Assembly (NCBI GenBank): GCA_041661265.1
Contig: JBAZUT010000002.1
Location: 76,316 to 140,315, forward strand
Direction of reading: 5' to 3'
Length of the DNA: 64,000 nt
Origin: Minisyncoccota bacterium
GTDB lineage: Bacteria; Patescibacteriota; Minisyncoccia; JAHIHE01; JAGLIN01
Position 1 is the stretch's first letter. Each line of letters begins with the position of its first letter. The position numbers and the translations under genes are program-made. The notes under the pieces are model-generated. The model saw nothing but the letters and a program-made list of their open reading frames with translations, searched no databases and was not told the DNA's origin. Of the stretch, positions 19,531-53,271 are shown one piece after another.

Positions 19531-20024
19531 ATTATTGTTTTTTTGATAGCGCTAGATGTCAGGTTTGAACTGAACTTTCAAATCTTGTACAACTTATGGA
19601 GATTGAAAAATTGAGCGAACAGAATGATGAAAATATAAAAGTCGTGATCACCGACATTGACGGCAGCATGATGCCCCAGGGAGGCCCGATGGCTTCATTG
19701 CCGAACAAAGAGACGGACTCGGCCTTGTCGAAGGAATACTGCACTATGCCGAAAACGGATATTTCGATGAGCGAACTGCCAAAAAAATACAACAAAAGAT
19801 CGACGAACTGAAAATTTTCTGAAACAAGGAGAGATAAAGTTATCTCTTTTTTTATCGGTCAAAATCATGAATAATTCCGCTCTTATAAGTTTCTGCCTGG
19901 TCGAATATTATCCATCATTCATGCAATAATCCCTCCTACGATAAATTTATTATTGAATTCATGAAATATTCAAAGATTATTCATATATTTTTCATTTTGA
20001 TCTTTAAATTTTTATTTTTAAATA

Positions 20025-21254
20025 TTATTCGTATCTCAATGCTTCGATCGCATTTAATTTTGCCGCCTTATGGGCCGGGTAAAGTCCAAAAACGATCCCG
20101 ATGATCACCGCAACAGACACGGAAATTATAACTGAAAAAGGAGAGATAATCATCTCCCAGTGATACCCGAGATATTGCAGAACGAGAGCGATCAAAACCG
20201 AAAATATCGACCCCAGGATCACTCCGATAGACCCGCCGACGAAAGTAAGCATTACGGATTCCACAAGGAACTGGTTCCTGATATCGGACCGCTTGGCGCC
20301 GATCGCCTTTCGAAGACCGATCTCCCTGGTCCGTTCCGTCACGCTGACCAGCATGATGTTCATTATCCCGACTCCGCCCACAATGAGAGATATGGCAGCA
20401 ATCGCACCCAGGAACAGATTAAGGGCATTTGTCACGCTTCCGATTATGTCCAGCGCTTGCGTCATGCTGCGCACCGTAAAATCTGCCTTAGCGGGATCGG
20501 TTATGTTGTGCCTCTGCATCAATAATTTGCGTATCATACTTATGGCCATTGGAATGTTCTCTTTCAGGTCCACCTTGCCCCTAAGAAAAGAAATATGGTC
20601 GATCCCCAGCATGATCTTCTGCGCCGTCTTGACCGGAATAAAGACCTGGTCGTCCTGGCCGGAGACGGATGAACCTTTCTTCTTCAAAATGCCGACGACG
20701 ACGAAACTCTCCTGATCTATTTTCACCCTCCTTCCGATCGCGTTTTCCGCGATGAATAATTTTTCATAAACGGAATTTCCCAGAACCACGATCCTGGAAA
20801 CGCTTTCATCTTCATCCTGGACAATGAATCTTCCGCTCACGACTTCCGCATTTTCAACGTTGATGAAATCCGAAGTCACTCCCGAAAAAGTGGCATTTTT
20901 CGATCTGTTTTCATAGGAAATATCGGCATTCCCATTGACATACGGGGTTACGGCGATGATATGGGGGATCTTTTTGATCTCTTTGGCGTCATCATAGGTG
21001 AGCGTCGTTATCACAACCCCGAACATCGATGAAGGCGGACCGCCTTCCTCGCTGGCGCCGGGAAGAACCCCTACGAGATTGCTTCCAAGGGATTCGATCT
21101 GATTGAAAACATAGCTTTGCGCCCCTGCGCCCACCGCCATGATCGTTATGACACTGCCCACTCCTATGATGATTCCCAGCATAGTCAAAAAAGACCGCCT
21201 TTTGTTGACAGCGATGTTTCCAAGTGCAAATTTAATAATTTTAACAATTTTCAT
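20025..21254 (-). CDS. ABC transporter permease, FtsX/MacB-like (copy 2)
   Basis: Paralog of 18271..19530 (GLRKAIGA motif). Confidence 0.85.
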   Translation of the reverse strand: MKIVKIIKFALGNIAVNKRRSFLTMLGIIIGVGSVITIMAVGAGAQSYVFNQIESLGSNLVGVLPGASEEGGPPSSMFGVVITTLTYDDAKEIKKIPHIIAVTPYVNGNADISYENRSKNATFSGVTSDFINVENAEVVSGRFIVQDEDESVSRIVVLGNSVYEKLFIAENAIGRRVKIDQESFVVVGILKKKGSSVSGQDDQVFIPVKTAQKIMLGIDHISFLRGKVDLKENIPMAISMIRKLLMQRHNITDPAKADFTVRSMTQALDIIGSVTNALNLFLGAIAAISLIVGGVGIMNIMLVSVTERTREIGLRKAIGAKRSDIRNQFLVESVMLTFVGGSIGVILGSIFSVLIALVLQYLGYHWEMIISPFSVIISVSVAVIIGIVFGLYPAHKAAKLNAIEALRYE

Positions 21255-21482
21255 AATTATCTCATAATGCCTAAAAAAATGTAATTATCATGAATTTTAT
21301 TCTTTAATTTTCAATTCACAATTATCAATTTACATTCAAATTCCAATTCATCAATATCCAATTTGAAAATTACGTAATTGAAAATTCACTGAAAATTGTA
21401 AATTGACCATTGAAAACTACTCAATGCCTATTAATCAGATCAATCATGATAATTAGAACAAGAAAATACTCTGCGGTTACGA

Positions 21483-22214
21483 TCATTTCTTAAACTCCCC
21501 ATTCGCAGCAAGTCTTCTTTTGCCTATTACTTCGTCTTCTATAATAAGCCCGTCTTTTACATGCAGGATCCTCTTTGCACACTCTGCGGTATATTTTTCA
21601 TGCGTAACCATGATAATTGTATGGCCTTCATTGTTCAGCTTTTGCAATATCTCAACGATCTCTTCGCCGGATTTGCTGTCAAGATTTCCCGTCGGTTCAT
21701 CGGCAAGAATAAGCCTCGGATTGTTTATAAGAGCCCTCACGATAGCCACTCTTTGCTGTTCTCCGCCCGATAATTGATTCGGCCTATGGTCAAGCCTATG
21801 CGTCAAACCGACTTTCGCAAGAAGCGCAACGGCTTTTTCCTTCATTTCCTTTTCATTGATATTGGCCAAATAGGTCGTTGGAAGAAGCACATTCTCCAGA
21901 ACACTGGTCCTCTGCAGAAGATTATATGATTGAAAAATAAATCCGATCTTTTCACTGCGAAACTCGGCAAGCTTGTCATCATCCAGCTTGGAAGTATCAA
22001 GGCCCTCAAAATAATAATCTCCGCTTGAAGGTTTGTCCAAAAAACCAATTAGATGCATAAGAGTTGATTTTCCCGAACCCGATGCCCCCATAATGGCGAC
22101 AAATTCGCCTTCATTGACTGAAAACGAAACGCCTTTTAACACGCTCGTTTCCACCTCCCCGTTCGTATAAATTTTTTTTATATCCTTCAGTTTTATCAAC
22201 TCTGCTATTGACAT
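21483..22214 (-). CDS. ABC transporter ATP-binding protein (MacB/LolD-type)
   Basis: Walker A GASGSGKST, signature LSGGEQQR, Walker B ILADEPT. Confidence 0.93.
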   Translation of the reverse strand: MSIAELIKLKDIKKIYTNGEVETSVLKGVSFSVNEGEFVAIMGASGSGKSTLMHLIGFLDKPSSGDYYFEGLDTSKLDDDKLAEFRSEKIGFIFQSYNLLQRTSVLENVLLPTTYLANINEKEMKEKAVALLAKVGLTHRLDHRPNQLSGGEQQRVAIVRALINNPRLILADEPTGNLDSKSGEEIVEILQKLNNEGHTIIMVTHEKYTAECAKRILHVKDGLIIEDEVIGKRRLAANGEFKK

Positions 22215-22236
22215 TATAGTAGTTTTATGCTATAAT
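22208..22236 (+). promoter_or_regulatory. consensus sigma70-type promoter TTGACA-17 nt-TATAAT
   Basis: Perfect hexamers with 17-nt spacer; -35 overlaps the ATPase start codon on the opposite strand. Confidence 0.55.
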
Positions 22237-22291
22237 TTAAAGTTAAATAATGTAACGTTTTGTCACAAACAAAACAAGAAAGGAAGACATT

Positions 22292-22405
22292 ATGAACTAC
22301 GAAATACAAGATATGATCGATGTAGCTTTAGATAAACTTAACGAACAGATGGAAAAATACGACATTTCTTCCAAGATCGAAGAAGCTGAAGAAGCTGAAT
22401 GGTAG
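22292..22405 (+). CDS. small acidic protein (37 aa, MNYEIQDMIDVALDKLNEQMEKYDISSKIEEAEEAEW)
   Basis: AGGAAG RBS, ATG, sits between a consensus promoter and a perfect terminator; under 60 aa so absent from the ORF track. Confidence 0.45.
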   Translation: MNYEIQDMIDVALDKLNEQMEKYDISSKIEEAEEAEW

Positions 22406-22417
22406 CTTCCATCCGCA

Positions 22418-22452
22418 AACCACCCCGGCTGAAAAGCGGGGTGGTTTGTTTT
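22418..22452. terminator. rho-independent terminator (bidirectional)
   Basis: AAACCACCCCGGCT-GAAA-AGCGGGGTGGTTT followed by GTTTT; A-run on the other side. Confidence 0.7.
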
Positions 22453-22490
22453 GGCTTGCCTCCCCTTTTCATCGATCCGCGAACTGGTCG

Positions 22491-24329
22491 CTAGGCCTGA
22501 CCCTCAACGAACGTTACAACGCTCTGGCCCTCGAAAAGTCCGCTCAAAACCTCTATGTTTATATCCCCTTTCAATCCCATTTCAATGTTGACATCCGTCA
22601 GCTTTCCATTTTCGACGATCTGAACATATTTTCGCGAACCATCTTCTTTGAGAGCCTGGAACGGAATCATAAGCACATTTTCTTTCTTTGCGGTCAGGAT
22701 GTCGAGATTGGCGGTCATTCCCGGTTTTATGATCTGCGCATCAGCTGTGAACATTGCCGTAACTTTGTAATATATGACGCCGGACACCTCGGTCTGCGCC
22801 GGATCAATGCTGATGATCTTTCCGACAAATTCTTTGTCCGGACCAAGCGCGTCAAAGGTTATTTTCACTTCATCCTCGATCTTCACTTTGGCTATGTCCA
22901 CTTCGGAGATATTTGCTTTTATTTCAAAACTGTCCGTGGTTATGATCGAAACGAAAACTTTTGCCGACGTGGCAATCTCTCCTATCTCGCCGTTAATTTC
23001 CGTGATGATGCCTTTATCGGGAGACTTGAGAGTGGAATTATCGATCTGGTTCTGTATGAGATCCACATTTGCCTGCGCTTTCTTGACCTGCGATTGGAAT
23101 GAAAGCATGTCAGCGCTCCTCGGCCTCGCTTTTTTAAACGCGAGCTGGTCCTCGGCCTGATTCAGAGCCCCCTCGGCAGCCTTAACCGAACTCTCCGCGG
23201 CATTGACCCTCAGGCTTGCGGATGACCTTGCGGAAACCAAAGATTGCTCATAAAGATCCAGGGAGCTTTGCGCCGAATTGACCGTGGCCTGAGCGCTGTC
23301 CAAATTCGTCTGATTTGTTATCTTCTGCGTAGAAACATCCTGATTGGCTGTAGTTATGTTGGATATTGAAGTGTTCGTTGAAGTCCTGGCTGAAGAAATA
23401 TTCGATTTCAACGTATCAAGCTCGGTTTGCGTCAGTGTCGACGAGGTTACGGTCGCCGAAAGAACTTTGTATGTATCGCTGAGCGCGGTCCGGATATTCT
23501 CAAGAGCATTTTTCGTCTTAAGAAGAGCTTCATCGGTCTTATCGTGCGTCAGCGAAGAAGTGATGCTGATCGCGTAATCATTGGCTGTATTATATGAATT
23601 AGTGGCCACTGCCTTGCTAGATGTTGCATTATTGAGATATTGGATATTGAGTACGCTCAAGGTATCCTGAGCATCTTCATATTCCAGCGTCGTCTTATTC
23701 GTATTCAGCGAGTTGGATGCCGTCACGAGGCCTGCATTGATCGTATCCCACGCATTATCATAATCTTGATTCAGATTATTTTCATTCGAAGTCGTGGTAT
23801 TATCAAGACTCTTCCGGGCATTTGCCAGGGTGGTCTTTGCGCTGTTCACAGAAGCTTCTGCGCTCAAGATGTCATTCTGCGATCCCTCCTCGGCATCCAG
23901 CAAGCTTTGCTGTGCATTTTCCAATGCAATCCTTGCATTCTCAACGGCAGTCTGGGATAACTTCAGATCTTCATCAGTTGCTCCCTCTATCAGCTTGTTC
24001 AGATCCGCGGTCGCCGAATTCAGACTCGCCCTCGCCTGTTCAAGCTGAGAATCCAATTGAGCCGTATCCAGCTTTGCGATAATAGCGCCCTGCTCGACAT
24101 GATCCCCGACCTTAACGTTTATTTCCTGAACCTTGCCCGAATTTACAAAATTCAGATCAAGCTTCTTCGCCGCCTCAACCGTGCCGGTTGCAGATACGGT
24201 CTGCAGAACCTCCCCCCTGGTCACTTGCGCAGTCGTATATTTAGGCTCCGGTTTTTTTGAAAAACTGAAAAAAGCGATAATTATGATCAATAGAACTGCA
24301 ACTGCAATAATTATGTTTCGCTTGGACAT
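22491..24329 (-). CDS. efflux periplasmic adaptor (HlyD/MacA-like membrane fusion protein) with extended coiled coil
   Basis: N-terminal TM, biotinyl-lipoyl-like and barrel motifs at the ends, about 350-aa Ser/Thr/Asn-rich coiled-coil middle. Confidence 0.8.
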   Translation of the reverse strand: MSKRNIIIAVAVLLIIIIAFFSFSKKPEPKYTTAQVTRGEVLQTVSATGTVEAAKKLDLNFVNSGKVQEINVKVGDHVEQGAIIAKLDTAQLDSQLEQARASLNSATADLNKLIEGATDEDLKLSQTAVENARIALENAQQSLLDAEEGSQNDILSAEASVNSAKTTLANARKSLDNTTTSNENNLNQDYDNAWDTINAGLVTASNSLNTNKTTLEYEDAQDTLSVLNIQYLNNATSSKAVATNSYNTANDYAISITSSLTHDKTDEALLKTKNALENIRTALSDTYKVLSATVTSSTLTQTELDTLKSNISSARTSTNTSISNITTANQDVSTQKITNQTNLDSAQATVNSAQSSLDLYEQSLVSARSSASLRVNAAESSVKAAEGALNQAEDQLAFKKARPRSADMLSFQSQVKKAQANVDLIQNQIDNSTLKSPDKGIITEINGEIGEIATSAKVFVSIITTDSFEIKANISEVDIAKVKIEDEVKITFDALGPDKEFVGKIISIDPAQTEVSGVIYYKVTAMFTADAQIIKPGMTANLDILTAKKENVLMIPFQALKEDGSRKYVQIVENGKLTDVNIEMGLKGDINIEVLSGLFEGQSVVTFVEGQA

Positions 24330-31419: not shown

Positions 31420-32337
31420 ATGATCAAAGAAATACAAAAAGACAAAACAATCTGGATAAATATCACAAATCCGAGCAACAAAGACATCGCATTATTGAAA
31501 CAAAGATTTGCGATCAATCTCCCGGTGTTGAGCGAACTGACACCCCCGATCAAGAGATCCAAACTGGAAGAATATAAGGATTATCTTTTTTTGGTGATCC
31601 ATTTTCCCCTGTTCAACCGAAAAAAAAGAGCCAACGAATCTGCGGAGCTCGACATGATAATATTCAAAAACATTTTGATAACTTCCCATACGGTGCAATT
31701 TCCCGAGTTGAAACAGCTTTTCGACCGGTGTGTTTCGGACGATAAACTGAAGAACAGATATATGGAGAACAGCGCAGTCTGCCTTGCGTTCAGAATATTG
31801 GACCTCCTGATAGACTCGAGGCTTCCGATGCTTGATCACATTGATGACAATATAAACAACATCGATGAAGGTATTTTCGAAGGCAACGAAAGGAAAATGG
31901 TCAGCGAGATCGCCATCATAAAGCACGACATCATAAGCTTCCGGCGGATAATCAAGCCTCAGAGAGTCGTGCTGGAAAATCTGGCGCATGCCTATTCCAA
32001 GATCACCTACGAAAATCTTTCCCGCCTTGCATCCGAGGTCATAGGCTCCAACATAAAGGTCTGGAACACTTTGGAAAATCATAAAGAAATGATCGAGGCG
32101 CTGGAACACACGAATGAATCGCTTCTGTCATATAAACTGAATGACACGATGAAGATCCTGACCGCCTTTTCCGTTATTATTCTTCCCCTTTCGCTCATGG
32201 TAAATATGTTCGGTATGAACATAACCAACGGGATGCCATTCGTTGAATCCCCTGTCGGATTCTGGATCATTTTCTTCATGATGATGATCGCGTCCATGTT
32301 GCTCATTGTCTTTTTCAGATACAAAAAATGGCTGTAA
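31420..32337 (+). CDS. corA: CorA family magnesium/cobalt transporter
   Basis: C-terminal two TM with GMN motif (FGMNITNGMP). Confidence 0.85.
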   Translation: MIKEIQKDKTIWINITNPSNKDIALLKQRFAINLPVLSELTPPIKRSKLEEYKDYLFLVIHFPLFNRKKRANESAELDMIIFKNILITSHTVQFPELKQLFDRCVSDDKLKNRYMENSAVCLAFRILDLLIDSRLPMLDHIDDNINNIDEGIFEGNERKMVSEIAIIKHDIISFRRIIKPQRVVLENLAHAYSKITYENLSRLASEVIGSNIKVWNTLENHKEMIEALEHTNESLLSYKLNDTMKILTAFSVIILPLSLMVNMFGMNITNGMPFVESPVGFWIIFFMMMIASMLLIVFFRYKKWL

Positions 32338-32407
32338 ACTATCCGATATTCGAGTGATCGGGAAAATGCATTACGGAAAGCGCCTTGTTGGTGCTTTTTT
32401 TCGATTT

Positions 32408-32450: not shown

Positions 32451-35400
32451 ATGACCCCCAGGACCCTTTGCAGGCAAATAGTTTTTCTAGTTGCCTTCTT
32501 TGCTATAATAGCACAGGTGACTTCCCTGACGATACAAAATACCGGTTTTTCTTTGGCTTCGACGACTACAGGCGACACATCTGCGATCATCAATATGCCA
32601 TTGACTATGAATAACGGCGCGGCAGATTTTCCGCCGTCTTCCGGAATGACATTGAACGGCGCGGAAATTTTCAAGGCCAGCGTAAGCATGTCATACGTAC
32701 CGTTAATCAGCATACCAGGTCAGGCAAGTTTAAGCGGAATAACTTTTTATTTAGGTGCGAATTCAATGCCGGCAAATAAGGTTAACCCTAGTGACCCTGT
32801 CGAGGTTGACTATATTTTTAATTCTTTCAGCACCGGTTCGTTGACCGATGGAACATATGATTTTTATGCTAAAGCTTTTTATGGCAGTTCCGCTACGGTG
32901 GAGAGCGATCATTACACAGTAATTCTTGCCAGAACACCGCTTGCTCCGACGAGTTTGACGGTAGATGGAGCTCCTACCGCTTCGTCCATTAAGCTTAGAT
33001 GGATCAACCAGTCGACTACCGCGGATAAGTTTACTATAGAAAGAAAAGAAAGTTCATTGAGCAATTATACGGCTCTTCCTCTGTATGAAGTTCCAAATGC
33101 AACTACCTATACGGATGGTACGGTTGCAGCCGGAACTTCATATGATTACCGAATTCAGGCATGCAGATCCGGATCCGGTTGTTCGGGGCATTCAAATGTG
33201 ATCACTGTCAGTTCTGCCGAAAATTGTTCGCTTACTGTTTCGCTCTCCCCTGATACTCAGGCTGCTCAGTATGTCAGCCCGGGCCAAAGCGAAGCTTCTT
33301 TGGTGAAATTCAACCTTTTTCCGAATTGCGCTATTACACTGAATAGCCTCTCTGTTTCGCTCAATGGTTATACAAACATTTCCTCATTGCATCTCTACGA
33401 TAGCTCAACCCAAGTGAATGCGGTTAGTGTTGCCGGAGCAAGTGCAAGTTTTGATGGTTTAAATATACAAATTCCTGCAAGCCTGACCAGGTCTATTGAG
33501 ATCAGGGGAGATATTAATTCTTCTGCAATGTCCGGTTCAATGGTTTCTGGATCTTTTGGATCCTTTACGGCAACCAGCGCCTCAGGCTCAGTTGGCAGCA
33601 GCAACACAAGCGTTGTCGTCGGCAATGTAATGACCGTAAGCGGATATGCCGGCGATACAATTCCACCCGCCATACCGACGGAACTTGCTGCTCCAAAAAA
33701 TGATTATAACGAAGTTGATCTTTCATGGGCCGCATCCACCGATAATGTCGGAGTCGCAGGATACGAGGTTTGGAGAACTAACGGAACATGGATCAGATTA
33801 GGAAATTCTCCCACAACTTCATACATAGATACAACTGTTGCTTCGGGAACAGGTTATTATTACAAAATTATCGCATACGATGCGGCAGGAAATAAATCTC
33901 CCGAGCCGTCCCAGAGTGCATGGTTATTTTTAAACACTCCCGCATCAACGAGCTTGCCTTTACCTCCGTCCTATGTAACTGCTGAATCGATCGTCGGAAA
34001 AATTGTCGTCAGTTGGCCGCCAGCCGCCTCGGCCACAAAATACAGCATTCATAGAAAAATTGGCACGGGGACCTACCAACCCTTATCCTCAAATATAACC
34101 ATTTCTTATTATGACGACGTAAATGTTACTACTGGCAGTGTTTATCGATACAAGGTCATGGGCTGTGATGCCACCGCATGCTCAACAACAGGAACGGAAT
34201 CAAATTCTGTAACATATAACGGAGGCGGCGCGTCTTGCACCAGCTTGACTTCGGCTATTAATGACGCAGATACATCCTATGTTGCAAGTGAGCCTGTAAA
34301 CTTCACCTGGACATGTTCTCCCGGCGGTATTGCCAGTAATGTCTATATGAAGCTTTATAGATCGGATGGCACAGTCGTATCCTCTTTGAACAGCCCCAAT
34401 AATATAGGTACTCAGACATTGTATCTTAGTACTTTGAATTTATCTATTGGGTCATATATTGTTAAGGCCTGTTTCGAGTCTAATTGTTCAACGACCGCTA
34501 CCAGTCAGACATTTACGGTAGTTTCCGGCACCTCGACCGCTCCCGCCTTCACCGTATCGCCGATAGTTACTGAAAAAATAGGATACCCTTCAAAGAGGAT
34601 AATGAAAGTTGAAACGGTTTCCAGTCCGACCGGATATACGCCGACGAATATTATCGGCAAAATAAAAGATTCGTCGGGAAATATCGTCGGAAACACGACA
34701 TTCAATTTAGTTCTTCAAACTGTAGGATATTGGACATATGAATATGACATAAGCAGTCTCGCCGGAAATTACAATTTCTGCGCAAGCGGGATGTTTAACA
34801 CGACTTCCATTCCATGGGCCTGTACCACGGCCGCATTTACAGTGGCGACCACCACCCCTTCCGCCACGAGCATTTCAATTTATCCCGATGTGTTGAACAG
34901 TGCTGGAACGTTCAAAACACTGCAGATCACGGTGATGCCGTCAGGAACAAAACTGTATAACGTTTCAGGAAAGATCCGCAAGGACGGCGCATTTGGAGCC
35001 ATAGCATTCGATTCTATCGCGCTGACCTTCGATCCCTATTCAGCCTCCTGGAGAAAAGAATTTGATATGGGAAATCTCGCGGCCGGCGGAAATTATGTTT
35101 TTTGCGCAAAAGCTTCTCTTGATAGCACCGGATCAAACCCGATGCCCGAGGTTTGTACTGGAATATTCACCATAGACATCGCTGCTCCGGTGGATCAAAC
35201 CGCCACAACAACTCCTCAGCTCGAAGTGTATTTCCAGAATATCACACCTTTGGCGATCAAAGGGGATGTCAAAATTGCCATAAAAACAAATATTGAACCC
35301 GACATTGTGAACTTTAAACTGCAGAGAGAATCGGGTTCGGCCACCTATCCGGCGGCCAACAAGATCGACGCCACCAATTTCTATTTCCTATGGAATACGG

Positions 35401-37943
35401 CGCAATATTATGACGGAAACTATACCATTTCTGCGACAGCCAAAAAGGGCGTTTATGAAAAAACGGCCTTTGTGAGCGCAGTAGTCGCCAACTATTCTTC
35501 CACTCCCACAACAACTCCGACAACGCAGTCCACAGATATTTTCAATATCACTTTCAATGAAGCTTTCCAGCCCCCTCTTTCCGGAGAAAGAACCGTCTCC
35601 ATCTCATCCACCCAAAAAATGGATAGCTGCAAATTCAAGGTGGACGGCCCGAAATATGCCGAATTTCCGGGAACAAACAACGGCATGCAATGCTCCCTCG
35701 TTCTTCGCACCCTTGATTTTCCGGATGGAAAATATTTCATAAAAGCAATTGCCACAAGCGGCGTAAGCACCAAAGAAATTGTTCTGGATACTTCATTTTC
35801 AAATCAGCCGAGCACGACACTGCCACCGCCTAACCAAACATCTTCCTTCTATCTGCCGCCGGAGTGCAAGGACAAGGGATATCTGACACCGGAAACGTGC
35901 CAGAATTACATGATGCTCCCGCCGGAGTGCAGAAACCAGAATATCCTGGACCAGAAAGCCTGCGAGGCATATATGTATAAATACAGCATGCCGCCGGAAT
36001 GCGTCAGCCAGGGCGTTCAGACTCCGGAAGAATGCCAAAAAATAATCTATCTGGCCAGCATGCCGCCGGAATGCCGGAATCAGGGCGCAACGACAAAAGA
36101 AGAGTGCGACAAAATAATGAGTGTACAGTTCATGCTGACGCCGGAATGTAAATCTGCCAACATAACCGCCGCGGATGCCTGCAACACATACATGATCGAA
36201 AAATTCTCTCCTCCGGAATGCAGCAGTGCCGCAACTCAGGATGAATGCAATTACATAATGAGAAATTCATATAGCACTTTCAACGACCTGCAACCCCAGA
36301 TAACACAAAACACTTTTGGCATCGCACAGCCGGCGATAAACGAATTCCCGCCGGAATGCCGGGACGCCCGGATCACTTCCCCCGATGAATGCAAAAAACA
36401 CATGATGCTCCTTTCCATGCCCGTCGAATGCCGGGACGCCAATGTAACAACCGGACAGGAGTGCGAAAAGATCATGTTCAAGAAAAACGGACCGCCGGAA
36501 TGCATCGATGCCGGAATCGATGATCCGGCTGAGTGCGAAAAATTCATGTTCAAGAAGTATGCGCCGGACGACTGCAAGGCAACGGGCATCTTCAATCCCG
36601 AGGCGTGTAAAAAATATATGCTTGAGAAATACAGCGGAAAAGATGAAATTCCAAAAGATAAATTCCCGATCGAATGCCAGAAAGCGAATGCAAACACCTC
36701 CGAAGAATGCGACAAAGTCATGAAAACCATATACATGCCACAGGAATGCAAGGATAAGGGAATAACCGACCAGAAAGACTGCGATTCCTATTTTGAGAAA
36801 AAATATATGCCGCCCGTCTGCAAGGAAGCCGGAGCTTCGACAAGAGAAGAGTGCGATAAGGCTATGTTCAAAAAATATGCACCAAAAGAATGCCTGAAAG
36901 CCGGAATTGAAAAAGACGACGAGTGCCAAAAATATATGTTCAATCTGTATGCTCCGAAAGTGAAATGCGATAATGTGGAAGACTGGCAATGCAAGAAAAA
37001 CCTTGAAGAAGGACATCTGGGCAATATTGTTTCAAAGCAAGCTCAATTCGCTCAGATAAAAGATAATTCCGGCGAGATGATCGGAAAGTCAATGAAAGTG
37101 GGCGCCCTTATGGAATCGAAAGCATTTGAAAACAACGGAATGATCCCGCTCACACAAAAAGATACCAGTCTCAAGGTAGTTCCGGCTGCCGAGAACATGG
37201 TCCTGAACGACGAAGATACCCTTGTGCAGACCGGACCTGTCGCCTTTATGATCGACACCGACGGCGATAACCTGTCTGATGATATGGAATCGCTGCTTGG
37301 GACAGATCCGGACAAGACGGATTCGGACGGCGATGGATACAATGACGGTGAAGAGATACGGACCGGCCATGATCCTTCGGGACCCGGACTTTTCACGGGA
37401 AGCCTTTCCCCTGCCGAGAAAGCGATGATAGAAAACATAACCCTGGAACATCCGAAAACCTCCGGCGAGGTCTCGGAAACGCTTGCGGTTGAAAAGATAG
37501 ACAATGCGTCAAGCGGAAATGAAACCGACGCTCTTGGGTATCTCCTTTCGGGAACATCCGATCCGAACAGTATCGTAACCGTATATATTTATTCCGACCT
37601 GCCGCTCGTTCTGACCCTGAAAGCGAACAACGAAGGCAATTGGGAATATAAACTCGACAGATCTCTCTCCGATGGAGAACATGAGGTTTATGTTGTTGTG
37701 AATGATGAAACCGGAAAGATAGTCGCGAAAAGCAAGCCGTCAAGCCTTTTCATAAAAGAAGCGAAAGCAGTTTCTGCAAGCAATTATCTGGAAACTTCCA
37801 TAAGCGACCTCGCGGAAAAAACTCCGGCTGAGATCAGCTCTCAAAAATACAACTTTATCCTATTCCTTTCCATAACTACCGCCCTGAGCATATTCGGCGT
37901 AATGCTCATTCTCAGAAAAAGAAAGAATAATCCGGCGAAATAA
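32451..37943 (+). CDS. giant cell-surface protein (about 1830 aa): signal peptide, Fn3/Ig-like domains, 15x Cys-repeat module, Ca-binding DxDxDG repeats, C-terminal TM anchor
   Basis: Start MTPRTLCRQIVFLVAFFAIIA; Fn3-like segments (SWAASTDNVGVAGYEVWR, YYYKIIAYDAAGN); PPEC..EC repeats; DTDGDNLSDD...DSDGDGYNDGEE; C-terminal LFLSITTALSIFGVMLILRKRK. Confidence 0.85.
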   Translation: MTPRTLCRQIVFLVAFFAIIAQVTSLTIQNTGFSLASTTTGDTSAIINMPLTMNNGAADFPPSSGMTLNGAEIFKASVSMSYVPLISIPGQASLSGITFYLGANSMPANKVNPSDPVEVDYIFNSFSTGSLTDGTYDFYAKAFYGSSATVESDHYTVILARTPLAPTSLTVDGAPTASSIKLRWINQSTTADKFTIERKESSLSNYTALPLYEVPNATTYTDGTVAAGTSYDYRIQACRSGSGCSGHSNVITVSSAENCSLTVSLSPDTQAAQYVSPGQSEASLVKFNLFPNCAITLNSLSVSLNGYTNISSLHLYDSSTQVNAVSVAGASASFDGLNIQIPASLTRSIEIRGDINSSAMSGSMVSGSFGSFTATSASGSVGSSNTSVVVGNVMTVSGYAGDTIPPAIPTELAAPKNDYNEVDLSWAASTDNVGVAGYEVWRTNGTWIRLGNSPTTSYIDTTVASGTGYYYKIIAYDAAGNKSPEPSQSAWLFLNTPASTSLPLPPSYVTAESIVGKIVVSWPPAASATKYSIHRKIGTGTYQPLSSNITISYYDDVNVTTGSVYRYKVMGCDATACSTTGTESNSVTYNGGGASCTSLTSAINDADTSYVASEPVNFTWTCSPGGIASNVYMKLYRSDGTVVSSLNSPNNIGTQTLYLSTLNLSIGSYIVKACFESNCSTTATSQTFTVVSGTSTAPAFTVSPIVTEKIGYPSKRIMKVETVSSPTGYTPTNIIGKIKDSSGNIVGNTTFNLVLQTVGYWTYEYDISSLAGNYNFCASGMFNTTSIPWACTTAAFTVATTTPSATSISIYPDVLNSAGTFKTLQITVMPSGTKLYNVSGKIRKDGAFGAIAFDSIALTFDPYSASWRKEFDMGNLAAGGNYVFCAKASLDSTGSNPMPEVCTGIFTIDIAAPVDQTATTTPQLEVYFQNITPLAIKGDVKIAIKTNIEPDIVNFKLQRESGSATYPAANKIDATNFYFLWNTAQYYDGNYTISATAKKGVYEKTAFVSAVVANYSSTPTTTPTTQSTDIFNITFNEAFQPPLSGERTVSISSTQKMDSCKFKVDGPKYAEFPGTNNGMQCSLVLRTLDFPDGKYFIKAIATSGVSTKEIVLDTSFSNQPSTTLPPPNQTSSFYLPPECKDKGYLTPETCQNYMMLPPECRNQNILDQKACEAYMYKYSMPPECVSQGVQTPEECQKIIYLASMPPECRNQGATTKEECDKIMSVQFMLTPECKSANITAADACNTYMIEKFSPPECSSAATQDECNYIMRNSYSTFNDLQPQITQNTFGIAQPAINEFPPECRDARITSPDECKKHMMLLSMPVECRDANVTTGQECEKIMFKKNGPPECIDAGIDDPAECEKFMFKKYAPDDCKATGIFNPEACKKYMLEKYSGKDEIPKDKFPIECQKANANTSEECDKVMKTIYMPQECKDKGITDQKDCDSYFEKKYMPPVCKEAGASTREECDKAMFKKYAPKECLKAGIEKDDECQKYMFNLYAPKVKCDNVEDWQCKKNLEEGHLGNIVSKQAQFAQIKDNSGEMIGKSMKVGALMESKAFENNGMIPLTQKDTSLKVVPAAENMVLNDEDTLVQTGPVAFMIDTDGDNLSDDMESLLGTDPDKTDSDGDGYNDGEEIRTGHDPSGPGLFTGSLSPAEKAMIENITLEHPKTSGEVSETLAVEKIDNASSGNETDALGYLLSGTSDPNSIVTVYIYSDLPLVLTLKANNEGNWEYKLDRSLSDGEHEVYVVVNDETGKIVAKSKPSSLFIKEAKAVSASNYLETSISDLAEKTPAEISSQKYNFILFLSITTALSIFGVMLILRKRKNNPAK
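35862..37010 (+). repeat. about 15 tandem 24-aa coding repeats [M/F]PPEC(x9-10)[E/D]C.K.M..KY within the giant protein
   Basis: Repeat seen directly in the translation. Confidence 0.8.
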
Positions 37944-37969: not shown

Positions 37970-39403
37970 ATGACCATTAAGGAACTGATCGTAAAGAACA
38001 AAGAGTCGTTCCAGCTGGGCTACGGACTTCTGCTTATCATCCTCATTCCGATCCTGATCACCGTGAATGTGAATTCGGTCATTGAGAAATACAGCAACAA
38101 CATCGACAAATCGCTGCAAAAACAGCTTCTTACTGTCGGCCGCTCCGTATATGCCCTCGTGAGAGATGACCTTTCGGATCAGGCGGAACTTCAGAAAAAG
38201 ATCGATGCGCTTTCAAAAAGGAACTCCGAATTTCAGAGTATCGAGGTATTGACGCCCGAAGCTTTGACTCAAGAAGGATCCGACTCAAATGAATCTTTCA
38301 AAGTGACAGCTTCCTTGAACCGCGCCGAAGTCGGAAAGGTCATAGATCTTTATTATTACAACCTGGCATGGGGACTCAAGGATAATGACGGACTGGCCAC
38401 ATCCTCCTTCCAAGTTCTGGCCACAAAGGACGGAGAAGCTCTCGTCGGCGATCTTTCAAGAAACGAACGTTTTTGGATCCTGGCCATGCCCATGAGCGAC
38501 GCATCGGGAAAAAAACAGGCCCTGCTCACGTTCAAGACATCTTCAAAGATAATCGATGACCTTGAAAGCGAGAATAGAAATTCCGCAATGTTCTGGCTCA
38601 TCATTACAGTCATTACAACGATCACTTTTCTTTCGATCAACATCAGGCTTTGGGACTATGCGCTCCTCTACAATAAGATCAAGGAGGTTGATCAGATGAA
38701 AGATGAATTCATCTCCATGGCCTCTCATGAACTCCGCACCCCCCTCTCATCCATAAAAGGATATGTTTCTCTCGTCCTGGAAGGAACTTTCGGAAAGATA
38801 GCGAATCCTGAAATGGAAAGAAGCCTGATCCGGGTCATGGCATCCACAAAACGGCTGGAAGAGCTTGTAGAAGACCTTCTTAGCGTTTCCAGGATCGAGC
38901 AGGGGCGCCTTGACGTGGAGCTGAGTGATGTCAAGATAGAGCCGATAGTTGAAGAGATAAACGGTCAGCTGAAGATCTCAGCAGACGCAAAGAACCTTGC
39001 GCTTATCTATCAGAGACCCCCGCAGGAACTTCCTCCGATCCAGTGCGATCCGGAACGCCTGAAACAAGTGCTCGTAAATCTTGTGGGCAATTCCATAAAA
39101 TATACCGAAAAGGGCAGTGTGACTGTCTCAACCGAAATGAACAAGGATAATAAACTGGAGATCAGGGTCAAAGATACGGGCATCGGAATGTCCGCCGAAG
39201 AGCAGAAAAGGCTGTTTGAAAAATTCTACAGGATCAAGAACGAAAACACCGAAAAGATCGTCGGGACCGGACTGGGGCTTTGGATAACGAAACAGATCGT
39301 GGAACTTATGAACGGAAAAATATATATCGAGAGCATGAAGGGCGCCGGAACGCAATTTACCGTGGTCCTTGATCCGGCAAAATCGAGATCATCCGGAAAA
39401 TAA
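37970..39403 (+). CDS. sensor histidine kinase (TM, HisKA, HATPase_c)
   Basis: H-box MASHELRTPLSSIKGY, N/G1/G2 boxes; no response regulator adjacent. Confidence 0.9.
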   Translation: MTIKELIVKNKESFQLGYGLLLIILIPILITVNVNSVIEKYSNNIDKSLQKQLLTVGRSVYALVRDDLSDQAELQKKIDALSKRNSEFQSIEVLTPEALTQEGSDSNESFKVTASLNRAEVGKVIDLYYYNLAWGLKDNDGLATSSFQVLATKDGEALVGDLSRNERFWILAMPMSDASGKKQALLTFKTSSKIIDDLESENRNSAMFWLIITVITTITFLSINIRLWDYALLYNKIKEVDQMKDEFISMASHELRTPLSSIKGYVSLVLEGTFGKIANPEMERSLIRVMASTKRLEELVEDLLSVSRIEQGRLDVELSDVKIEPIVEEINGQLKISADAKNLALIYQRPPQELPPIQCDPERLKQVLVNLVGNSIKYTEKGSVTVSTEMNKDNKLEIRVKDTGIGMSAEEQKRLFEKFYRIKNENTEKIVGTGLGLWITKQIVELMNGKIYIESMKGAGTQFTVVLDPAKSRSSGK

Positions 39404-49425: not shown

Positions 49426-52400
49426 TTATGCCTTTTTTACGCCAATCGCGACATTTACATCTCTTATCTTCAGATCCTTCACAAGATCGAAATTATTTTT
49501 TTCTATCGTTTCTATTGGCGTTATATCGGAAGCAAGGCACTCTTTTTGGATGCTTTCTTTCCATCCGCCCATGATCTTCCCGACAAGCCCATTTCCACCC
49601 CCGGACGAATAGGCGACCGAAATCCTATCGTTTCTGTCATATTTAGCCTCTTTTCTCATTGTTTGTATATGGCGGATGATCTCCCTCGAATAGCCCTCCA
49701 TTTCAAGCTCTTCGGTTATTTCAAGATATAATCCTATTTTTATTGTGCCATCATCTTCATATGCCCATCCCTCTCTTGTTTCAAATTCATTCACATAACG
49801 CGCCTCTTTAACATTCAATTCATCCCTCATAATTTCAAATAACTCATCGGTGAGTGCCGCATCTGTAAATTTATCCTTCACATCATACTTATTACTAGTT
49901 TCCTTAGTAGCCTCGATTTTCCCAATAATCAGCACACTCAACGGCATCCTAACTCTAATAGAATTTTTAGCTCTTGCCGCCAAAGCCAATTTAGTTACTC
50001 TGCGAACCAAATCCATTGACTGAGACAGCTCGTTATCAATCAATTTTTTATTTGTTTCCGGGAATTTCTCCAGATGCACCGAAGCATTTCCTGTCAGATT
50101 CCTGAAGATTTCGTCCGCAAGAAATGGCATGAACGGCGCCATGACTTTCGAATATTCGATCATGACATAATATAAAGTTCTGAAAGCATTCATTCTGTCT
50201 TCAGCATCGTTCTCGGACGAAAACCTCTTTCTTGATCTCCTGATATACCAATTTGAAAGTTTATCCGTGAAATCACGAAGGGGTCTTGAAGCCTTAACGA
50301 GATCATAGTTTTCCATCTCGCCGTTCACTCCGCTTATAAGAAGATTCAGTTCGGACACAATCCATCGGTCGAGAAAATTATCTGATATTTTTTTGCTTTC
50401 GAGGTCTTTTGCCTCGAGTTTTGCCATCTCCAGATTCATCGCAAGAAACGAGTAGGCATTCCAAAGAATGAGAATGAACCGCTTCAAAACTTCCTCCACG
50501 CCCTTCTCGGAAAAATTTAGATTCTCGCCTTTCATGACCGGAGAAGAGAGCAGATAATATCGCAAGGAATCCGCGCCATATTTTTCAATAAGAAGATTCG
50601 GATCCGGATAGTTCTTCAGGCTTTTGCTCATTTTCTGCCCGTCTTCAGCCTGAACTATCCCGTTCACGATCACATTCTTGAATGCCGCCTTATCGAAGAG
50701 AGCAGTTGAAAGAACCATCAAAGTATAGAACCATCCCCTCGTCTGGTCCAACCCTTCGGCAATGAAATCCGCCGGGAAACTCTTATTGAATTTTTCAACA
50801 TTCTCAAACGGATAATGATATTGGGCATAGGGCATCGATCCGGATTCGAACCAGCAATCGAATACGTCTCCGACAATTACCGCTTCCCCCGCGCACTTCG
50901 GACATTTCGCCTTGACCATGTCGATGTTCGGCTTATGCATATTGAACTCCCGCCCGCCCTCGTCAATATAGAATATCTCGCTCTCGCAATACCCAAGCGC
51001 ATCTTGCGCAACGAAACAATCCGCTATGGAAATTCCGCTCAAAACCCTCCTGAAGATCGCATTGATGCCTCCATGGCTTACGACCAGAATGTTCTTCCCG
51101 GGATATTTTTCTATGCACCGGCCGATGAATTTTCTGACGCGCACTTCCATCTGCCTTCTCGACTCCCCGTCTCCGCCCAGGACAAAATCATATTTTTCTT
51201 CAAGAGTTGCGATCTTCTTGTATTTTTTATAAAGCTCGTCATTCTCCAGAAGATATTTGGCCGTTCTATCGTTCCATGAACCATATTTATATTCCATCAC
51301 CAGATCATCTGTAACAACCTCCGCTTTCAATGCTTTGCTTATTATTTCCGCAGTCTGGCGGGTGCGCAGGACCGGAGACGTTATAATTATATCTATTTTT
51401 TTATCTTTCAGTTCTTTCGCTGCTTTTTCGGCATGTCCGATGCCATCCTCCGTCAGCGGATATTTTTCAAGGCTGTCCGATTTGATATTTTCCAGATTCT
51501 TTCCGCTCTCCCCATGGCGCATAAAAATGATCTTGGTTATCTTCTTTTCAGTATTATTCCTGAGTTCATCGATCGAACTTACGACCAATTTTTCTCCGCA
51601 ATCCTTGCACTTCCAGACCGGAAGCGGAGCTCCCCAGAACCTGCTCCTGGAAACCGCCCAGTCGCGCGCGTCCTCAAGCCACTTGCCGAATCTCCCTTCC
51701 TTGATATATTCCGGAACCCACCTTATCTTCTTGTTGTTCTTTATCATCTTGTCCTTGATGTCCGTGACCTTCACAAACCATGAGCTTGTCGCATAATTGA
51801 TGAGCGGAGTATTGCATCTCCAGCAATGAGGGTAGCTATGCTCGTATTTCTCCTTGGCATACAGTGTTCCGGTGTGAGCAAGATATTTTATGATCTCGAT
51901 GTCAGTTTTCTGGCTGTCTTCGGCAGACTTCACTTTCATACCTGCGAATTCTTTCATCTCGGGAGTGAATGTGCCATCCGTCCTCACGTTGACGATTATT
52001 GGAAGCCCGATCTGTTTTGCCGCCTGCATATCGATCTCGCCGAATGCCCCGTTTATGGTCACGATCCCGGTTCCGTCTTCCAGGCTCACATAATCCGTCA
52101 AATGCGTCTTATAGACATTTTCATTTTTCTTAACCCTGTCGTCATCTTTATAAAAATCGGAAAATGGATGAATATATGAAATATGCTCCATGTCTTTTCC
52201 TTCTATCTCTTTTATGGCATCGTATTTTTCAACTTTACCTTTTTCAATGACATAAGGGAGTCTTTCTTTTACGCAAATGAATTGTTCGCCTTGCGCCGAA
52301 AACAGCGTATAACTGAAATCTCCGCCCACAGCAAGGCCCATTGTCGTCGGAACACTCCATGGAGTTGTCGTCCACGCCAGAAAACTTGTCGGCTTTCCTG

Positions 52401-53067
52401 TGCATTGCTTATCCAGGAAGGCTTTGTCGGTGATCTTGAATTTCACGATAACCGAAAAATCTTTTACCGTCTTGTATCCCAGCGTCACTTCGAAATTGGA
52501 TAGCGTAGTTTCACATCTCGGGCAAAGATGCATGGACTTTTTCCCTTCATATATCAGACCTTTTTTATACAGTTCAGAAAAGACCCACCATATTGATTCC
52601 GTGTATTTCCAGTCCATGGTCTTGTAGTCATTATCCATATCCACCCACCTGCCGACTCGCGGAATGAATTTTTTCCACTCATCCGCATATCGAAGCACAG
52701 ATGAATGACAGGCATCATTGAACTTGTCCACGCCCCACTTTTCTATGTCCTTTTTGTTCTTTATGCCATGCTCTTTTTCGATCAGATTCTCGATCGGAAG
52801 CCCATGACAATCCCAACCCCACTTTCTCTCAACTCTTTTTCCCTTCATGGTCCAGAACCTGGGCACCGCATCTTTCATAAGACTCGCCACCACGTTCCCG
52901 TAATGAGGAAGTCCCGTCGCAAAAGGAGGACCGTCAAAAAAGCTATACGCCGGCTTTTCTCCCTCCTCGCCCACGGATCTTTCGAAAATCTTATTTTCTT
53001 TCCAATATGCCATCAATTCACGCTCCATTTCCGGAAAATTTTGCTTTGGATCGGCTTTTTTGAACAT
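49426..53067 (-). CDS. ileS: isoleucine--tRNA ligase (type 2) with an inserted histidine-phosphatase domain
   Basis: HYGN (HIGH) region, CP1 editing domain, KMSKS, Zn knuckles; start at MFKKADP (ORF-track extension to 53169 unlikely). Confidence 0.93.
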   Translation of the reverse strand: MFKKADPKQNFPEMERELMAYWKENKIFERSVGEEGEKPAYSFFDGPPFATGLPHYGNVVASLMKDAVPRFWTMKGKRVERKWGWDCHGLPIENLIEKEHGIKNKKDIEKWGVDKFNDACHSSVLRYADEWKKFIPRVGRWVDMDNDYKTMDWKYTESIWWVFSELYKKGLIYEGKKSMHLCPRCETTLSNFEVTLGYKTVKDFSVIVKFKITDKAFLDKQCTGKPTSFLAWTTTPWSVPTTMGLAVGGDFSYTLFSAQGEQFICVKERLPYVIEKGKVEKYDAIKEIEGKDMEHISYIHPFSDFYKDDDRVKKNENVYKTHLTDYVSLEDGTGIVTINGAFGEIDMQAAKQIGLPIIVNVRTDGTFTPEMKEFAGMKVKSAEDSQKTDIEIIKYLAHTGTLYAKEKYEHSYPHCWRCNTPLINYATSSWFVKVTDIKDKMIKNNKKIRWVPEYIKEGRFGKWLEDARDWAVSRSRFWGAPLPVWKCKDCGEKLVVSSIDELRNNTEKKITKIIFMRHGESGKNLENIKSDSLEKYPLTEDGIGHAEKAAKELKDKKIDIIITSPVLRTRQTAEIISKALKAEVVTDDLVMEYKYGSWNDRTAKYLLENDELYKKYKKIATLEEKYDFVLGGDGESRRQMEVRVRKFIGRCIEKYPGKNILVVSHGGINAIFRRVLSGISIADCFVAQDALGYCESEIFYIDEGGREFNMHKPNIDMVKAKCPKCAGEAVIVGDVFDCWFESGSMPYAQYHYPFENVEKFNKSFPADFIAEGLDQTRGWFYTLMVLSTALFDKAAFKNVIVNGIVQAEDGQKMSKSLKNYPDPNLLIEKYGADSLRYYLLSSPVMKGENLNFSEKGVEEVLKRFILILWNAYSFLAMNLEMAKLEAKDLESKKISDNFLDRWIVSELNLLISGVNGEMENYDLVKASRPLRDFTDKLSNWYIRRSRKRFSSENDAEDRMNAFRTLYYVMIEYSKVMAPFMPFLADEIFRNLTGNASVHLEKFPETNKKLIDNELSQSMDLVRRVTKLALAARAKNSIRVRMPLSVLIIGKIEATKETSNKYDVKDKFTDAALTDELFEIMRDELNVKEARYVNEFETREGWAYEDDGTIKIGLYLEITEELEMEGYSREIIRHIQTMRKEAKYDRNDRISVAYSSGGGNGLVGKIMGGWKESIQKECLASDITPIETIEKNNFDLVKDLKIRDVNVAIGVKKA
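51025..51543 (-). other. inserted histidine-phosphatase (phosphoglycerate-mutase-like) domain within ileS, about 170 aa
   Basis: KIIFMRHGESGKN ... ILVVSHGGINAIFRRV, lying between the WKCKDCGEK and CPKCAG...WFESGSMP segments of IleRS. Confidence 0.7.
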
Positions 53068-53271
53068 AATATGATTTATTTGTTTACATATCCATTTTAA
53101 GCTAATATAAGCAAAAAGTAAATATATTCCCCGATGTTGACAAAATCGTTCATATCCAATAAACTTCAAGGAAACCCTAAAATATTTTGGTCCGGGAATA
53201 TGCCTTTATTGCATAGATATAGCCATATTCTTGTCCTATAATAAGGACACGTAATACAAAGGTGATATATT

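Follow-up and report, generated by a model that had tools for sequence, protein, structure and literature searches.

A stretch of 64,000 nucleotides (nt) from a Minisyncoccota bacterium (contig JBAZUT010000002.1; here called the window, by which the whole stretch is meant) contains a giant open reading frame (ORF) at 32451..37943 on the plus strand, whose stop-free translation of 1830 amino acids (aa) has the character of a type I surface protein. Inside this protein lies a long run of small units with two cysteines each, and the locus raises the question of what such a run is and what it does in a protein of this size. The repeat family is uncatalogued: it is absent from Pfam, NCBIfam and the PDB. 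As to its role, the repeat module is probably, in our judgement, a rod-like or chain-like stalk, most likely stapled by disulfides, that belongs to a membrane-anchored type I surface protein of the Patescibacteria (candidate phyla radiation, CPR).

The two-cysteine unit and its family

The module occupies aa 1135-1531 (nt 35853-37043, plus strand) and consists of 15 tandem units with 30 Cys. An earlier reading made from the sequence alone, termed here the sequence-only reading, had placed about 15 two-Cys units of 24 residues at 35862-37010. The repeats are found there with the motif that it gave, although the module proves to be slightly wider than that span. Of the 47 Cys in the protein, 30 fall at aa 1139-1514, where they form 15 consecutive pairs. 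Thirteen units are canonical, with a C-x10-C spacing, a period of 24 aa and usually x12 to the following unit; the steps from one first Cys to the next are 21, 24, 24, 25, 24, 46, 24, 24, 24, 34, 24, 24, 24 and 25. The column consensus of the units is [MLF]-P-P-E-C-[KR]-x-A-G-I-T-T-x-E-E-C-x-K-Y-M-F-K-K-Y, and the module conforms to the consensus that defines the family, [MLF]PPEC[KR]EAG[IA]T[TD]xEEC[ED]K[IY]MFKK[YH], or P-x-x-C-x10-C in short. The protein has 13 C-x10-C motifs, whereas 2000 shuffles of it gave 1.1 on average and never more than 6. Composition also sets the module apart, with 7.6% Cys vs 1.2% in the remainder of the protein and 5.0% Met vs 1.9% elsewhere, and it is highly charged (52 K+R and 66 D+E in 397 aa).

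The units are not all alike. Units 1-5 (aa 1135-1252, 35853..36206, on the plus strand as are all units) have C-x10-C spacing with periods of 21, 24, 24 and 25, and were modelled by AlphaFold2 (AF2) with a predicted local distance difference test score (pLDDT) of 73-91. Unit 6 has the spacing C-x8-C and is accompanied by a 22-aa insert (aa 1253-1298, 36207..36344), which AF2 shows as disordered (pLDDT <50 at model residues 145-165); relatives also have an insert at this place. Units 7-10 follow (aa 1299-1404, 36345..36662); unit 10 ends with the 10-aa insert SGKDEIPKDK, and the 34-residue step at this unit is kept across the family. Units 11-14 (aa 1405-1500, 36663..36950) are the most conserved part, where the invariant and near-invariant columns cluster. 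Unit 15 is degenerate (C-x7-C, KCDNVEDWQCK) and leads into an xHLG helix (36951..37043), with W383, Q384, H393 and G395 invariant or nearly so.

A search with Tandem Repeats Finder did not find a 72-nt tandem array in the DNA and returned just trivial short repeats. Two units are on average 51% identical in nt, 67% at most, and 38% identical in aa. Thus a recent expansion of the repeats, which the sequence-only reading had proposed to look for at the DNA level, is ruled out, and the array is ancient and not a recent product of slippage.

Neither Pfam nor NCBIfam contains a model that matches the unit, whether the module, the whole protein or 10 diverse relatives were used; the best matches, SPP1_GP23-1 (E = 8e-4, below cut-off) and Ssol_1539-like, are at chance level. 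A profile search of PDB chain sequences at E<=10 gave zero matches, and Foldseek searches with both AF2 models (see below) against PDB and BFVD gave nothing below E = 1. The impression from the sequence that the unit is an unfamiliar one is therefore borne out by all of these searches. In the literature searched, the repeat was nowhere described. A general remark notes that Peribacteria encode large, very Cys-rich extracellular proteins, possibly for attachment (PMC4736985). For Cys-rich CPR proteins PMC4736985 cites the Myxococcus cysteine-rich repeat; the Pfam and NCBIfam scans listed no such family at E<=1.

A four-unit profile was used in HMMER to search 1.84 billion representative proteins, which yielded 415 relatives at E<=1e-3, 276 at E<=1e-10 and 102 at E<=1e-30, the best match having E = 1.7e-172. 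It should be noted that in the underlying alignment, used both for the profile search and for the four-unit AF2 model, MAFFT shifted overlapping four-unit segments by whole units (192 columns). Separate homologue searches returned 29 proteins with the module as the query and 52 with a 1000-aa C-terminal query; this type of search seems to return proteins of a length similar to that of the query, and a 96-aa alignment query gave two short proteins, hence the 1000-aa query. The closest named relatives of the giant protein are from Minisyncoccia, Falkowbacteria and metagenome-assembled genomes (MAGs) labelled "Patescibacteria group", which places the window in a CPR/Patescibacteria genome.

When one genome per GTDB species was scanned, 39 loci came to light. 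Patescibacteria account for 17 of these (Paceibacterota/Parcubacteria, Falkowbacteria and Moraniibacteriota), and DPANN or unclassified archaea for 21 (Pace-, Woese- and Nanoarchaeota, and Nanobdellati). One further locus (L023, CAZBFZ010000029.1) is on a 7.9-kb contig in a MAG labelled Methanosarcinales and may be a binning error. That contig aside, the family appears from named matches and genome loci to be restricted to CPR bacteria and DPANN archaea. No relatives were found in the viral contigs scanned, which leaves a phage vector for the sharing between CPR and DPANN without support.

Family members fall into two classes. Class A proteins, of which the window protein is one, have in order a signal peptide, 0 to ~1000 variable residues, 7-28 units, the xHLG helix, two DxDxDG motifs, a Big_13 domain, a transmembrane (TM) helix and a basic tail. 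Across 17 GTDB loci the last 299 aa show 40-48% identity, the two DxDxDG motifs are present in most class A relatives, and the hydrophobic C-terminus with its basic tail in nearly all. Class A loci are all bacterial, and the class A C-terminal part is found in no archaeal locus. In class B a signal peptide is followed by DUF5667 (PF18915), a Cys-rich segment, 2-7 units and a low-complexity tail; DUF5667 is N-terminal and does not overlap the repeats. The class B C-terminus often has an aromatic motif such as F-x-x-Y-Y-F-R. Many archaeal relatives (P0015, P0017, P0019, P0021-P0023 and P0029 among others) end in an aromatic motif of this kind, for example NDNRFVRYYFRFL or GNAFFDYYYN, with no TM helix, and this motif could be an archaeal sorting or anchoring signal that has not yet been recognised.

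How the unit folds was approached by modelling. AF2 applied to the whole module, with a 27-sequence alignment, gave a mean pLDDT of 73.5 and a predicted TM-score (pTM) of 0.29. Every unit shows the same pattern: a helix of 5-6 residues that starts from P-E-C, a loop of 4-5 residues, and a helix of 12 residues that starts from T-x-E-E-C. A model of four units (aa 1299-1394) shows this pattern again, with pLDDT 85.7 and pTM 0.54. In both models each Cys of a unit is in the first turn of its own helix, so that the conserved Pro, Glu and Thr ahead of the Cys would be helix N-terminal residues, which would explain the "EC" signature.

Covariation served alongside AF2 as an independent check and was assayed by mean-field direct-coupling analysis of 898 two-unit windows of the family, from which Cys-Cys couplings were dropped as artefacts of invariant columns. 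The strongest non-Cys coupling is that of position 10 with position 19 within one unit, and it was recovered separately in both units of the window analysed. The next couplings are i/i+3-4 pairs across positions 3-7 and 12-25, and E4-K23. These couplings support a compact helix-loop-helix unit.

Important for the pairing of the cysteines is their regularity. Cys is present at both positions in 1729 of 1729 fully aligned units (from 1903 unit matches in 208 proteins), and of the 123 proteins that have at least 5 units, 116 carry an even number of Cys in the array. In these 123 proteins the gap between the two Cys of a unit is x10 in 81% of cases, whereas the gap between units is x12 in just 52% of cases, ranges from x9 to beyond x36, and is where inserts fall. 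Pairing between units would also strand the first and the last Cys of the module. Thus the fixed gap within units, the even counts and the stranded terminal Cys make C5-C16 pairing inside the unit the most economical arrangement, and the two Cys of a unit most likely form the disulfide that locks it. The sequence-only reading had proposed a disulfide-stapled hairpin; the hairpin is recovered as the AF2 helix-loop-helix, and the invariant pairs, the even counts with a fixed gap and the 10-19 covariation agree with the staple, while the disulfide itself is the inferred part.

A conserved chassis and a variable head

A terminator-like hairpin at 32375-32399, which follows the CorA gene, overlaps a TTG at 32385, and the ATG at 32451 is therefore preferred as the start of the giant ORF. 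The first 27 aa (32451..32531, plus strand, as are all segments of the ORF that follow) are signal-peptide-like, with the sequence MTPRTLCRQIVFLVAFFAIIAQVTSLT; this call rests on Kyte-Doolittle hydropathy and not on a dedicated cleavage-site prediction. A hydropathy scan detects just two hydrophobic segments in the 1830-aa protein, at aa 5-29 and aa 1801-1822. The second is the C-terminal TM helix (about aa 1800-1822), followed by the basic tail RKRKNNPAK (37848..37940). Two terminal hydrophobic segments with a basic tail are the signature of a type I membrane protein, here with ~1770 extracellular residues. No LPXTG motif precedes the C-terminal helix in the window protein and none is conserved in the relatives; on this test a sortase anchor fails.

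Between the two ends the domains are arranged as follows. A variable head (aa 28-678, 32532..34484) contains an fn3 domain at aa 165-251 (32.8 bits, Pfam) and a second, fn3-like stretch at aa 374-485, detected with the NCBIfam model of a CbhB-like exoglucanase. Next to the repeats is a conserved region (aa 679-1134, 34485..35852) that is collinear with those of P0036 and P0042; it appears Ig-like by the character of its sequence, and the Pfam scan gave no matching model for it. After the repeats comes a helical and strand linker (37044..37253), seen in the translation and in AF2 and kept in class A relatives. It reaches to two DxDxDG motifs of the bacterial TSP3 type (aa 1602-1642, 37254..37376), for which PF18884 (TSP3_bac) scores 21 bits against a cut-off of 25 bits; the orthologous segment scores 32.1 in P0034 and 25.8 in P0052. 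Beside the membrane is a Big_13 Ig-like domain (PF19077) at aa 1699-1761 (37545..37733), with 34.2 bits and E = 3.9e-8 against a cut-off of 27 bits. Thus the signal peptide, the Fn3/Ig-like domains ahead of the repeats, the acidic DxDxDG motifs and the C-terminal anchor, all named in the sequence-only reading, are recovered, and its view of the repeats as a stalk fits the order of a variable head followed by conserved repeats, TSP3 motifs, Big_13 and membrane anchor.

Comparison with relatives divides the protein into two parts. The orthologues P0173 (79% identical), P0001 (77%), P0036 (75%) and P0042 (54%) have the same number of units as the window protein, with essentially equal spacing. 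The copy-number variation for which a comparison between relatives had been proposed is therefore not seen, and the array is positionally conserved and not dynamic. Across the family the last units keep the steps 24, 24, 24, 34, 24, 24, 24, and it is the N-terminal half of the array that varies in unit number. The window protein and P0036 are collinear at 71% identity over aa 679-1830, whereas their N-terminal 680 residues align as rearranged pieces with ~29% identity. P0042 behaves similarly, being collinear from aa 829 at 54%. The extreme case is P0005, a complete protein of 673 aa in which the signal peptide is followed directly by the repeats and the anchor, without any head. Whatever the length of the head, class A always keeps the repeats, TSP3, Big_13 and the membrane anchor. 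A conserved chassis with variable distal domains is what one would expect of a stalk that displays a fast-evolving binding tip, and the comparison supports such a reading.

Codon 695 (34533..34535, plus strand) differs between assemblies. It is TCG (Ser) in the window and a TAG stop in three other public assemblies (loci L040, L041 and L046), which have A in place of the window's C at 34534. TAG is an ordinary stop in the window genome, where it ends 4 of 29 genes, and gene callers split the ORF of the stop alleles into 694 and 1113 aa. Two of the three assemblies are otherwise identical to the window over 9.3 kb. The third has seven differences in 6.7 kb, position 34534 included; of the six further ones, all downstream, five are synonymous and one changes Val to Ile. 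With substitutions of this kind, the part that encodes the stalk does not resemble a pseudogene in decay. Two alleles may exist, of which the intact 1830-aa form would be one, and the change at codon 695 may represent an on/off or truncation polymorphism.

The downstream kinase and the possible roles of the module

The giant ORF is followed, 26 nt past its stop, by an orphan sensor histidine kinase of 477 aa (37970..39403, plus strand), with two TM helices that flank an extracytoplasmic loop of ~170 aa, then HisKA and HATPase_c. In 16 of 16 evaluable Patescibacteria loci from GTDB the repeat gene is directly followed, on its own strand, by a kinase orthologue with 45-61% identity, and the kinase is likewise directly downstream in 19 of 19 evaluable metagenome loci, two sets that partly overlap. 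The estimated gaps between gene and kinase in the 16 GTDB loci are ~0 to 170 nt, with one of ~540 nt. CysS, the next gene after the kinase, is common to just a few loci; thus the pairing of repeat gene and kinase outlasts the general gene order. No terminator-like site is found between the giant ORF and the kinase, and promoter-like sites are found only past the kinase, which is weak evidence. No response regulator was detected in the window or in any fetched locus, in a weak test with reference sequences as queries. Four distant class A members have no kinase neighbour, so the pairing belongs to a subfamily. The kinase pairing is a lead toward a surface-sensing function and not a result.

In the stalk explanation the N-terminal signal peptide would direct the export of the protein, and the C-terminal helix would fix it in the cytoplasmic membrane, with the basic tail in the cytoplasm. 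From the membrane outward there would follow Big_13, the two TSP3-type calcium motifs, the linker and the Cys-repeat module, with Ig/Fn3-type domains of ~1100 residues at the far end. The conserved chassis would then consist of the repeat module with the anchor, and the outermost part of the head would be an exchangeable cargo, presumably for binding, while the giant gene and the orphan kinase with its extracytoplasmic sensing would form an operon-like pair. In this scheme we infer the disulfides, the rigidity, the reach through the envelope, the adhesive role of the head and the signalling to the kinase. The pattern of a conserved chassis with a variable head makes an attachment or adhesin role for the protein plausible.

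Several points weigh against a stalk of this kind. The pTM values are low (0.29 for the module, 0.54 for four units) and coupling between units is weak beyond sequence neighbours, with the consequence that a rigid rod is not distinguishable from beads on a string. Class B proteins of DPANN have few units (2-7), which are interspersed and have no TM anchor after them, so that a stalk role may apply to just a part of the family. In the last eight units conservation extends to individual positions, and many non-Cys residues are invariant, which exceeds the needs of a passive spacer and points to specific contacts. As to the disulfides, no Dsb or VKOR gene was detected in the 64-kb window, again in a weak test with reference sequences as queries, and many CPR bacteria inhabit anoxic groundwater, where free thiols are possible. 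A single BdbD/DsbA-like gene was detected among the fetched loci by the same weak test; it is in L043, 3.5 kb from P0055. If that contig is CPR, as we take it to be, the gene would indicate a disulfide-forming capacity in the lineage. Finally, the stop at codon 695 in three assemblies means that the intact form may not be the common allele.

The strongest of the alternatives, which we still hold to be unlikely, is that the module itself is the working interaction surface, in contact with a cell-wall or S-layer polymer, with the loop of the kinase or with a host component, and that the Ig/Fn3 head is secondary. The conservation of the last eight units and the unit spacing fixed across the family are what such a surface would show, and the retention of the headless P0005 with its module and anchor agrees with it. 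The kinase is directly downstream in every evaluable locus of the subfamily while CysS is not conserved, and cell-wall genes (VanW/PG_binding_4, VanY) adjoin distant members. However, distant class A members have no kinase neighbour, no binding-domain family was matched in Pfam or NCBIfam, and the highly charged composition and uniform unit are those that a structural repeat would have.

A wider scheme, which we consider rather speculative, would make the stalk, its exchangeable Ig/Fn3 tip and the kinase an antenna, that is a two-gene device for sensing at the surface, built on a unit that has moved between CPR and DPANN. Host engagement, or a redox or mechanical state, would be relayed through the membrane-near domains to the extracellular loop of the kinase. 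If this were true, ultra-small episymbionts could detect attachment, and the unit would be a building block of cell surfaces common to two unrelated lineages of like lifestyle.

It is improbable, in our estimate, that the Cys are instead kept reduced in an anoxic habitat and that the Cys- and Met-rich units form a soft-metal or redox-sensing array, the stiffness of which would change and perhaps be reported to the kinase. In each unit both Cys are indeed invariant and Met is conserved at positions 1 and 20, Met makes up 5.0% of the module, and CPR and DPANN organisms are typical of anoxic groundwater. Cation transport genes are among the neighbours (CorA here and in several loci, a P-type cation ATPase beside P0055), and the neighbouring kinase has no adjacent response regulator. 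On the other hand, a unit offers two possible thiol ligands and no conserved His, and 15 units paired into Cys4 sites would strand one unit. The Glu ahead of the Cys is accounted for by helix N-terminal preference in the AF2 models, and the conserved Met positions suit a hydrophobic core. The DsbA/BdbD-like gene near one member argues for oxidative folding.

That the periodicity is a compositional or chance artefact, or that the real gene is antisense (minus-strand ORFs at 36267-37016 and 36251-36751, 166-249 aa long, overlap the repeats), has practically no chance of being correct, since 13 motifs stand against ~1 in shuffles, 415 homologous clusters follow the plus-strand frame, and the near-identical strain has five synonymous changes and one conservative change in that frame past codon 695. 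This reading is refuted by the homologue and substitution data, and, as it is the plus-strand frame that is conserved, the antisense ORFs at 36251-37016 on the minus strand can almost certainly be regarded as shadow ORFs.

The gene immediately upstream of the giant ORF is a CorA magnesium/cobalt channel (31420-32337, plus strand), and CorA is also upstream in several related loci (L010-L012, L047 and L064). In L043, the locus of the distant class A member P0055, a P-type cation ATPase is 5 nt downstream and VanY is upstream, and 3.5 kb downstream are the BdbD/DsbA-like gene and a glutaredoxin; P0034, in L042, has VanW/PG_binding_4 as its neighbour. The gene content of the window is bacterial: elsewhere it holds a tmRNA and genes for DnaK/GrpE/HrcA, CorA, CysS, DnaB, RecR, RecO, RNase Y and CTP synthase, with LytR_cpsA_psr, Wzy_C, glycosyltransferases and MacB/FtsX as envelope-related genes. 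Two MacB/FtsX permeases, an ABC ATPase and an HlyD-family adaptor at 18271-24329 on the minus strand form an efflux set of the tripartite type, in a type of bacterium generally believed to be without an outer membrane. A class I aminoacyl-tRNA synthetase of 1247 aa (49426-53169, minus strand), from the Ile/Leu/Val/Met (tRNA-synt_1) group, appears to be interrupted midway through its catalytic domain by a histidine-phosphatase domain (His_Phos_1, aa 547-739, E = 2.6e-34, Pfam).

A large part of microbial diversity belongs to the CPR bacteria and the DPANN archaea, and many of these organisms are believed to live attached to other cells; to our knowledge very few of their surface molecules have been characterised. 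What is new here is a compact repeat of ~24 aa in the conserved stalk, as we interpret it, of large surface proteins; close relatives differ by the exchange of the outer domains of these proteins. It gives targets for structure, a disulfide or redox question, and a candidate for attachment and possibly, by way of the kinase, for the sensing of attachment. Its distribution over two domains of life is a marker for gene exchange among co-occurring ultra-small organisms. The kinase pairing and this cross-domain distribution are the most promising leads.

Comparison with known systems

Short alpha-solenoid repeats such as those of transcription activator-like (TAL) effectors are the top nominal Foldseek matches of the whole module and are likewise tandem helix-loop-helix units. 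However the match is not significant (E = 1.0, TM-score 0.12, root-mean-square deviation ~20 Å), and TAL units have 34 aa, lack Cys, bind DNA and are cytoplasmic or nuclear, unlike those of the window protein. A zinc-finger or metal-knuckle repeat was rejected: there are two conserved Cys per unit and no conserved His, and the Foldseek match to Zif268 is non-significant (E = 5.2). The CHCH domain (twin Cx9C) resembles the unit as a small helical hairpin held by a disulfide between helices, which in the window protein is putative. A CHCH domain, which is not tandemly repeated, contains two disulfides and two Cx9C motifs that each lie in a single helix, whereas the window unit has a single C-x10-C that spans the loop and one putative disulfide per 24 aa.

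For the pairing with the kinase, the nearest parallels are kinases with a co-encoded, anchored extracellular accessory protein, namely MtrB-LpqB in Actinobacteria, WalK-YycH/YycI in Firmicutes, and NlpE-CpxA. The likeness is that of a conserved pair of an extracytoplasmic-sensing kinase and an anchored extracellular protein. There is no sequence relationship to these systems; in addition the locus has no response regulator, and the surface protein of the window is far larger.

The Helicobacter Hcp proteins, built of Sel1-like repeats (PF08238), are secreted and consist of tandem helix-turn-helix units with one disulfide each, which stack into elongated helical arrays. The module is similar in having tandem helical units, each with one (here putative) disulfide, in an array that would likewise be elongated. 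However the Sel1-like unit has ~36 aa and a different consensus, while the window unit has 24 aa with one very short helix. Membership in Sel1/Hcp was rejected, since neither the module nor the whole protein has a Sel1 match at E<=1 and the unit is of 24 aa.

The stalks of Gram-positive and RTX adhesins have a common logic with the window protein, that is an anchor, calcium-binding or Ig-like elements, a long repetitive extender and a distal binding region. They differ in that the window extender is all-helical in the models, with two Cys per unit, and is not a beta-sandwich, and in that the anchor is a C-terminal TM helix, with neither LPXTG nor an outer-membrane secretion signal. The protein was also rejected as a member of the Ca2+-stabilised repeat adhesins: Ca_tandemer (NF033510) scores 20.8 bits against a cut-off of 50, with no tandem copies, and its single matching stretch lies over Big_13 and not over the repeats. 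Thus the module stands outside each of these families, and the general kind to which it belongs is already known, since both the repetitive extenders of other surface proteins and the helical, disulfide-bridged repeats of Hcp resemble it.

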